From Escherichia coli O127:H6 str. E2348/69 (GTDB taxonomy: Bacteria; Pseudomonadota; Gammaproteobacteria; Enterobacterales; Enterobacteriaceae), in assembly GCF_000026545.1 (NCBI RefSeq), contig NC_011601.1: 64,000 nt of DNA; one strand, 5' to 3'. Positions 30,001 to 33,000 of the stretch are shown piece after piece. The stretch's first letter is position 1; the number at the start of each line of letters is the position of its first letter. The position numbers were made by a program.

Positions 30001-33000
30001 GCCAAACTCCGCGACAAGTGGACCCAGCTCGAAATCAACCGTAACAAGCAACAGGCAGGCGTGACAGCCAGCAAACCAAAACTCGACCTGACAAACACTG
30101 ACTGGATTTACGGGGTGGATTTATGAAAAACATCGCCGCACAGATGGTTAACTTTGACCGTGAGCAGATGCGTCGGATCGCCAACAACATGCCGGAACAG
30201 TACGACGAAAAGCCGCAGGTACAACAGGTAGCGCAGATCATCAACGGTGTGTTCAGCCAGTTACTGGCAACTTTCCCGGCGAGCCTGGCTAACCGTGACC
30301 AGAACGAACTGAACGAAATCCGCCGCCAGTGGGTTCTGGCTTTCCGGGAAAACGGGATCACCACAATGGAACAGGTTAACGCAGGAATGCGCGTAGCCCG
30401 TCGGCAGAATCGACCATTTCTGCCATCACCCGGGCAGTTTGTTGCATGGTGCCGGGAAGAAGCATCCGTTATCGCCGGACTGCCAAACGTCAGCGAGCTG
30501 GTTGATATGGTTTACGAGTATTGCCGGAAGCGAGGCCTGTATCCGGATGCGGAGTCTTATCCGTGGAAATCAAACGCGCACTACTGGCTGGTTACCAACC
30601 TGTATCAGAACATGCGGGCCAATGCGCTTACTGATGCGGAATTACGCCGTAAGGCCGCAGATGAGCTTGTCCATATGACTGCGAGAATTAACCGTGGTGA
30701 GTCGATCCCTGAACCAGTAAAACAACTTCCTGTCATGGGCGGTAGACCTCTAAATCGTGCACAGGCTCTGGCGAAGATCGCAGAACTCAAAGCTAAGTTC
30801 GGACTGAAAGGAGCAAGTGTATGACGGGCAAAGAGGCAATTATTCATTACCTGGGGACGCATAATAGCTTCTGTGCGCCGGACGTTGCCGCGCTAACAGG
30901 CGCAACAGTAACCAGCATAAATCAGGCCGCGGCTAAAATGGCACGGGCAGGTCTTCTGGTTATCGAAGGTAAGGTCTGGCGAACGGTGTATTACCGGTTT
31001 GCTACCAAGGAAGAACGGGAAGGAAAGATGAGCACGAACCTAATTTTTAAGGAGTGTCGCCAGAGTGCCGCGATGAAACGGGTATTGGCGGTATATGGAG
31101 TTAAAAGATGACCATCTACATCACTGAGCTAATAACAGGCCTGCTGGTAATCGCAGGCCTTTTTATTTGGGGGAGAGTAAATCGTGGCTGACTGGCAAAT
31201 ACCAATCATCATTCTTGCCGGAGCTTCGCTGGTTGCTGGCTTTATCCTGCTGAAGAAGCATAAAGACCGTGATCAAAAAGTCGAAGTTCTCTATGGGTAT
31301 CCGGCGAACAGCACAACATGGCTGACTATTTACCACTACCGAAAATCAGGCCGTTGGGTATTCGAATGGGATGATCTGTTTGCTGAAAAGCGACCAAAGT
31401 CATGGGGAGACATCAGCGAATGCATGATGTTTGAAGAAAGAAAATCCGGCGCAACCCGAGAAGAGTTTAACGAAGCGTGGAGGCGATTAAGTGAGAGGGG
31501 GTATCAATGAGCAGAATTAAGTCGAGGTAACAATGAAGCAAATATACATGCTTCGCAACGAAGCAATCAGAAACAACGCCATAGACGCAATACTCTCACT
31601 TCCGATCGACGACAAGTCACCTCACGAAGTCCACATTAAAGAACCCAGGCGGAGCAATCCTCAAAACCGCCTTATGTGGGCGTTATTGCAGGACGTATCA
31701 CGTCAGGTGCTTTGGCATGGAAAGAGACTTGCGCCGGAGGACTGGAAAGATCTGTTCACTGCCCTGTGGCTTAAGACCAAAAAACTGGAGCAACGAAGTG
31801 CGCCTGGTATCGACGGTGGCGTTGTCATGCTTGGCGTGCGTACCAGCAAAATGCGAAAGGCCAGCATGACTGAGCTTATCGAAATCATGTTCTGGTTCGG
31901 CTCAGAGCGCAACGTGCGGTGGAGTGATGACTCCCGGCGAGAGTATGAATGGTCACAACGAAAAGGTAGGGCTGCATGACTATCAAATCAAATACGCCAG
32001 CACACGACAAGGACTGCTGGCAAACGCCGCTTTGGCTTTTTGATGCACTGGATATTGAGTTTGGATTCTGGCTGGATTCGGCAGCGAGCGACAAAAATGC
32101 TCTGTGCGCTCACTGGCTAACTGAGGCTGACGACGCGCTAAATTCTGAGTGGGTAAGCCACGGTGCAATCTGGAATAACCCACCGTACAGCAATATCAGG
32201 CCGTGGGTGGAAAAAGCCGCTGAGCAGTGTATACAACAACGACAGACGGTAGTGATGCTTGTGCCAGAGGATATGTCAGTCGGATGGTTCAGCAAGGCTC
32301 TGGAGAGTGTCGACGAAGTTCGTATTATCACTGATGGACGGATTAATTTTGTCGAACCATCGACAGGACTGGAGAAGAAGGGAAACAGCAAAGGTTCCAT
32401 GCTGCTGATTTGGCGACCGTTCATCAGTTCTCGACGGATGTTTACTACTGTATCCAAAGCGGCATTGATGGCGATCGGGCAGGGCGTCAGGAGGGCAGCA
32501 TGAGACGACAGCGACGAAGTTTCACCGACATCATCTGCGAAAACTGCAAATACCTTCCAACGAAACGCTACAGAAATAAACGCAAGCCAATCCCAAAAGA
32601 ATCTGACGTAAAAACCTTCAACTACACGGCTCACCTGTGGGATATCCGGTGGCTAAGACATTGTGCGAGGAAAACAAGGTGATTGACCAAAATCGAAGTT
32701 ACGAACAAGAAAGCGTCGAGCGAGCTTTAACGTGCGCTAACTGCGGTCAGAAGCTGCATGTGCTGGAAGTTCACGTGTGTGAGCACTGTTGCGCAGAACT
32801 TATGAGCGATCCGAATAGCTCAATGTACGAGGAAGAAGACGATGAATGAGTTAATAAATGGCAATGCCATAAAAATGACAAGCATTGAAATCGCTGAGTT
32901 GGTTGGTAAGCGTCATGACAATGTGAAACGTACCATCGAAACGCTGGCTAAAAATGGTGTTATCCGGCTTCCTCAAATTGAGGATTGTGGAAGAATCAAT

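Follow-up and report, generated by a model that had tools for sequence, protein, structure and literature searches.

Phage T1 Dam is a GATC methylase. A second phage enzyme, M.EcoVT2Dam, "is known to target 5'-GATC-3'" according to a passage of PMC6602927 that cites Radlinska & Bujnicki 2001, and the same paper gives M.EcoVT2Dam and M.EcoGV as separate entries on one Stx2 prophage. The present work concerns a gene in a 64,000-nucleotide stretch of Escherichia coli O127:H6 str. E2348/69 (contig NC_011601.1), which is called the window here and to whose positions the coordinates refer. The gene, at 31976..32503 on the + strand, is an intact open reading frame (ORF) that runs from ATG to TGA and encodes 175 amino acids. 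We consider it very probable that the product is a stand-alone, S-adenosylmethionine-dependent DNA N6-adenine methyltransferase, essentially M.EcoVT2Dam with GATC as its target, and that it is a delayed-early protein adding methylation capacity in phage replication.

The protein shares 173 of its 175 residues with the product of VT2-Sakai orf32 (NP_050531.1), from which it differs in having V126 for I and S152 for P, both at positions that are variable in the family. The identification of orf32 with M.EcoVT2Dam is made by elimination, because orf32 is both the one annotated methyltransferase of VT2-Sakai and the one ORF with a methyltransferase motif IV in all six frames. On the same grounds, we rejected the possibility that M.EcoVT2Dam is another VT2 gene, of the MT-A70 type. 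The two genes also have the same length, the same position between ninB and ninE, and the same ATGA-coupled layout. The M.EcoVT2Dam gene occurs further in Phi24B, Stx2 phage II, and HK97-like, HK140, and mEp043 phages, the Phi24B product being 100% identical to the VT2-Sakai protein. The gene studied here differs in its carrier, a non-Stx lambdoid prophage with nleB2/nleC/nleD cargo.

An earlier note on this DNA had described a 175-residue ORF containing IWNNPPYSN, and this description is correct: the translation of the ORF and the RefSeq coordinates agree, RefSeq labeling the identical E2348/69 coordinates as "phage N-6-adenine-methyltransferase" (WP_000153283.1). The segment 11976-52503 aligns with the E2348/69 chromosome NZ_CP059840.2 at 100% identity and without gaps. 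IWNNPPYSN corresponds to residues 65-73 (nt 32168-32194), and among the stop-to-stop ORFs of at least 80 amino acids in the 64-kb window, a (D/N/S)PP(Y/F/W/H) motif is present in the methyltransferase ORF only.

The protein matches Pfam PF05869, "DNA N-6-adenine-methyltransferase (Dam)", with an E value of 5e-64 and 215 bits against a cut-off of 28.1 (profile positions 1-167 of 169), the NCBIfam equivalog TIGR01712, "phage N-6-adenine-methyltransferase", with an E value of 5e-79 and 263.6 bits against a cut-off of 97.05 (profile positions 1-165 of 165), and PHROG 111, "DNA methyltransferase", with an E value of 4e-87. These scores place the family match far beyond chance. Residue conservation was read from an alignment of 71 family members with 31-80% identity to the query. 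Five residues are invariant (T17, D34, N68, P70, and R122) and eleven are conserved in at least 90% of the members (P18, F31, A37, W59, P69, Y71, L95, W104, G121, F125, and N137). The window protein keeps all five invariant and all eleven near-invariant columns, which include the T-P, D-x-A-A, NPPY, and G-R-x-x-F motifs and N137.

The structure, predicted with high confidence (pLDDT 95), consists of the catalytic domain of an N6-adenine methyltransferase and nothing more; its fold is that of class I S-adenosylmethionine methyltransferases, N6-adenine type, and a separate DNA-recognition domain is absent. In this predicted fold, strand 31-34 is followed by the D-x-A-A loop, and strand 64-67 by NPPY. 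The segment F31-W-L-D34-S-A-A-S38 (codons at 32066..32089, +), which comprises strand beta-1 and the D-x-A-A loop, is likely the S-adenosylmethionine-binding motif I, as judged from its position in the model, with the D-x-A-A loop as the likely cofactor site. N68-P69-P70-Y71 (codons at 32177..32188, +) is motif IV and likely the pocket for the flipped-out adenine. D34 and NPPY are separated by 34 residues, with no domain inserted. A conserved loop or hairpin formed by residues 121-141 (codons at 32336..32398, +) lies between the predicted strands 114-119 and 141-146 and holds the invariant R122 together with the conserved G121, F125, and N137. This hairpin is a candidate for a built-in GATC-recognition element.

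The structural matches are PCIF1/CAPAM (score 11.1), M.TaqI (10.1), M.BseCI (9.7), MmeI (9.6), E. coli Dam (9.1), and CamA and HsdM proteins (8-9). They align over approximately 105-149 of the 175 residues. All of them exceed the methyltransferase studied here considerably in size and have separate recognition domains; by comparison, it is a minimal enzyme. M.TaqI, the Type I HsdM proteins (gamma class), and PCIF1/CAPAM have 380-750 amino acids or more, only 10-17% identity to it, and separate recognition domains or subunits; the substrate of PCIF1, moreover, is capped RNA. A literature search for PCIF1 together with PF05869 returned no paper connecting the two.

The family models, the conserved residues, the predicted fold, and the 99% identity to VT2-Sakai orf32 thus concur with the earlier note that the gene encodes an orphan N6-adenine DNA methyltransferase. 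The term "Dam-like", also used there, holds in one sense only: it fits the reported GATC target, but not the ancestry, since the protein is a member of PF05869, not of the E. coli Dam family, and is devoid of a separate recognition domain. The Pfam scan matches PF05869 only, which sets the protein apart from the canonical alpha-class enzymes E. coli Dam, T4 Dam, and DpnM. These show no sequence-family match, align structurally over only approximately 105 residues, and have solved chains of approximately 240-260 residues, compared to 175 here. In contrast to the alpha-class Dam arrangement, the cofactor motif of the window protein lies just ahead of NPPY, and no recognition domain is found between or after the two.

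The Dam proteins of the T1 type also belong to PF05869/TIGR01712; in T1-like phages (e.g., haarsle and SLUR29), they are approximately 33-35% identical to the window protein over as much as 97% of the length. The dam genes of the T1-like Drexlerviridae are nevertheless distant in sequence and are found in virulent phages and in another gene context, and equal specificity is not guaranteed. M.EcoGV and M.EcoPA8orf6770P, of the MT-A70 type, are likewise prophage-borne orphans annotated as GATC adenine methyltransferases, and a gene of the M.EcoGV type can share one Stx2 prophage with a gene of the M.EcoVT2Dam type. They differ, however, in having a DPPW motif IV, a location near the integrase end, and a partner subunit, PNB-2. 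The window protein has NPPY, no MT-A70 Pfam match, and a nin-region location, and is therefore not an MT-A70-type "Dam homologue".

In some relatives with 45-49% identity, the PF05869 domain is joined to a C5-cytosine DNA methylase domain, which speaks for a DNA substrate. One PF05869 protein is fused to a PAPS-reductase domain, which we take to be the family of lambda NinC, and a Stx2a phage "PAPS reductase" protein matches query residues 6-128. These matches suggest recurrent methyltransferase/PAPS-reductase fusions in nin regions.

The nin-region setting given in the earlier note is borne out by the gene order, which reads O, P, ren, terminator, orf108, NinB, methyltransferase, NinE, NinF, KilAC antirepressor, YbcO, RusA, a 44-amino-acid ORF, and Q. 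The recombination mediator gene ninB (31533..31979, +; PF05772) ends in a TGA that overlaps the ATG of the methyltransferase gene (ATGA, 31976-31979), and ninE (32500..32682, +; PF05322) begins with an ATG that overlaps its TGA (ATGA, 32500-32503). Such overlaps are typical for nin regions (PMC8022706), and the one between ninB and the methyltransferase gene suggests translational coupling. No restriction endonuclease adjoins the gene, as the earlier note had stated: its flanks are NinB and NinE, and its best PADLOC match is "orphan methyltransferase" (oMTase). The ORFs that were scanned from ninB to Q match families known from nin regions; orf108 and the 44-amino-acid ORF, both small and without a match, show no resemblance to a restriction enzyme. 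PADLOC gave no match for the neighboring ORFs of unassigned family.

Just past ren, a tR2-type intrinsic terminator (31137..31168, +) consists of an 8-bp G+C-rich stem followed by TTTTTATTT (T run). Its sequence is 100% identical in the records of phages 933W, 434, and 21, several of which annotate "terminator" there. As this terminator lies between pR and the gene, the methyltransferase can be transcribed from pR only if RNA polymerase passes the terminator. The late antiterminator gene Q (34356..34979, +) lies at the downstream end of the nin region, in the same early-right operon. In a promoter scan, the sites within and upstream of the gene did not exceed chance (7 found, compared to 11.8 expected), and the lone promoter-like site within the gene, at 32301-32328, is weak (9/12 match). 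From the position in the pR operon past the terminator and from the lack of an own promoter, it follows that the gene would be under repression in the lysogen, its product appearing after induction, with N antitermination. It is thus probably silent in the lysogen, as judged from the operon structure and lambda biology. This is consistent with the data on Phi24B, in which the 528-bp dam coding sequence shows a significant change upon induction and belongs to the CMAT-identified genes with expression linked to the lytic cycle (PMC3342100). The suggestion of the earlier note that such a gene could alter host methylation from a prophage is therefore unlikely to apply here, where the operon is under repressor control and the gene lies behind a tR2-type terminator, its Phi24B counterpart being linked to the lytic cycle.

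On this basis, the following role is proposed. Under CI repression the gene, as the third ORF past the terminator of the pR early-right operon, would be silent. After induction it would yield a delayed-early product once N permits read-through of the terminator, with translation coupled to ninB and ninE. The enzyme would then add GATC-methylating capacity while phage DNA replication outpaces the host Dam, so that the progeny DNA would become fully methylated; the conserved 121-141 hairpin likely stands in for the missing recognition domain. Full methylation would shield the progeny from cleavage by enzymes specific for unmethylated sites containing GATC, as well as from processes directed at hemimethylated DNA. 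In lambda and P22, the virion DNA is under-methylated because replication outruns the host Dam (PMC8022706), and the host Dam is limiting for high-copy DNA (bioRxiv 10.1101/2020.06.22.160242). The prophage has 128 GATC sites, compared to 172-208 expected, so that substrates are plentiful. Surplus Dam activity may also trigger abortive-infection systems of the retron type; surplus Dam, including that of phage P1, methylates retron multicopy single-stranded DNA and leads to abortive infection (bioRxiv 10.1101/2020.06.22.160242; summary in PMC12640716). In this proposal we infer the biological benefit and the residue-level roles given above, and take GATC specificity, lytic-phase expression, virion under-methylation, and retron triggering from the literature.

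In the methylome of E2348/69, more than 99.8% of the GATC sites are methylated, and the other N6-methyladenine (m6A) motifs are two bipartite ones of the Type I-system kind, with none besides (PMC8495745). As the host Dam already methylates GATC, no new motif is expected in the lysogen even from an active enzyme. Comparing the methylomes of a lysogen and a cured strain, which the earlier note had proposed as a check, can thus neither reveal nor refute the activity of the enzyme in a dam-plus lysogen.

The gene is widely distributed. Its DNA is present at 95-99% identity in 244 phage records, which include many Stx1/Stx2 phages, HK140, mEp043, and lambda-like isolates, and the records with the best matches repeat the NinB-Dam-NinE order. 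It is found in 1565 of 5426 complete E. coli genomes, with at most 5 copies per genome; the E2348/69 chromosome NZ_CP059840.2 itself has two copies, the second one elsewhere. Relatives at the protein level occur in 2134 phage records, and a scan covering all 1.84 billion cluster representatives gives 8765 relatives at E ≤ 0.001.

Several points weigh against the proposed assignment. The GATC specificity is reported through a second-hand citation of the 2001 paper, in the passage of PMC6602927 quoted above, and plasmid over-expression assays can mislead, as they may yield off-target methylation (a caution quoted in PMC10810198). It could therefore be asked whether the protein is an active DNA adenine methyltransferase with a relaxed target, or with a short target other than GATC, that gives broader protection from restriction. 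The lack of a separate recognition domain would be in line with this, and non-specific prophage orphans do exist, such as M.EcoGI/GII and the enzyme of the Serratia prophage OS31 (the latter in PMC7556043). On the other hand, the protein is 99% identical to an enzyme reported as GATC-specific, REBASE assigns Dam and three paralogues of E2348/69 to GATC (PMC8495745), and the methylome of the strain contains no extra m6A motif, a result that a silent gene would give as well. A relaxed or different DNA target is thus very improbable.

It also counts against the assignment that searches of the PDB by sequence, with either the single protein or the 71-sequence profile, gave no relative, which leaves the recognition mechanism without a structural basis. 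Matches to Mediator Med31 in the PDB were dismissed as a chance similarity to "wcNPPYs". Furthermore, the best structural neighbor, PCIF1, is an RNA cap m6Am methyltransferase, and the fold alone cannot tell a DNA from an RNA substrate. Together with the translational coupling of the gene to both neighbors, this match could be taken to mean that the protein is not mainly a DNA enzyme but acts on RNA, or that it needs a partner (NinB or NinE) in the manner of the M.EcoGV/M.EcoPA8orf6770P family. A precedent is given by a phage protein that is annotated as a GATC methyltransferase and prefers 16S rRNA when bound to its partner (PMC10810198). As this protein belongs to a different family, we set the precedent aside as an argument from homology and keep it only as a caution; such a role is barely plausible. 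A related possibility is that the substrate in vivo is something other than GATC, either single-stranded DNA or recombination intermediates reached through NinB, or RNA, perhaps with a neighbor's product. This is conceivable because the protein has only 175 residues and no recognition domain, PCIF1 has the nearest fold, and the gene is coupled to ninB and ninE, but we give it only a slim chance.

Two further points concern the benefit rather than the chemistry. The role of phage Dam enzymes is "still not well understood" (PMC7556043), and the split tail genes of this prophage indicate that it may be defective and that the gene perhaps brings no current benefit. The tape-measure gene is divided into ORFs of 719 and 280 amino acids (48780-51865), and the J tail-tip gene into ORFs of 655, 238, and 348 amino acids (54256-57970), RefSeq marking a frameshift in both. 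Because these two genes are frameshifted, the prophage is probably unable to form infectious particles, unless the frameshifts are assembly errors. The gene, although intact, could then be a passenger in a prophage that is decaying, with no functional relevance and without effective expression in E2348/69. That the methylome shows nothing attributable to it, and that its target duplicates that of the host Dam, would agree with such a state. However, the ORF is complete, with no loss of a conserved family residue, and the gene is maintained at 95-100% identity in the 244 phage records and 1565 genomes, so that we regard a passenger status as unlikely. Such a status would in any case concern the present usefulness of the gene in E2348/69 and is compatible with the assignment as a GATC methyltransferase.

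The remainder of the prophage shows a number of additional features. It starts at an integrase adjoining torS and has nleB2, nleC, and nleD at its far end. Type III effector cargo occupies this right end (approximately 60400-64000; 3074717-3078314 in the E2348/69 record) and comprises a DUF1076 protein, nleB2, nleC, an nleH fragment, an IS256 remnant, and the start of nleD. The recombination module (22966-24487) is of the P22 type, with an anti-RecBCD protein, SSB, and a Rad52/Erf-like annealing protein, and not lambda exo/bet/gam, which illustrates the mosaicism of the prophage. The ORF orf108 (31184-31510, +), located where lambda has ninA, follows the tR2-type terminator and precedes ninB; its 108-amino-acid product has a hydrophobic N-terminus and is matched by neither Pfam nor PADLOC. 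A moron-like block (35232-36698) separates Q from the lysis genes, at the site that holds the toxin genes in Stx phages, and comprises a 247-amino-acid multi-pass membrane ORF, which has no Pfam family match, a DUF3927 ORF, and a 132-amino-acid ORF on the opposite strand. This block also contains a strong terminator-like hairpin (36406-36424).

For E2348/69, the gene is an ordinary prophage gene that was already annotated; the earlier observation is confirmed, and the feature is a known one. Its value as a discovery is small, the gene being annotated in RefSeq, a member of a curated equivalog family, and present in more than one-quarter of the complete E. coli genomes, with a homologue reported as characterized since 2001. 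The wider meaning lies in the PF05869-type family, which has no solved structure that sequence searches detect and comprises 8765 cluster representatives: in these enzymes, a specific site is apparently read without a separate recognition domain.
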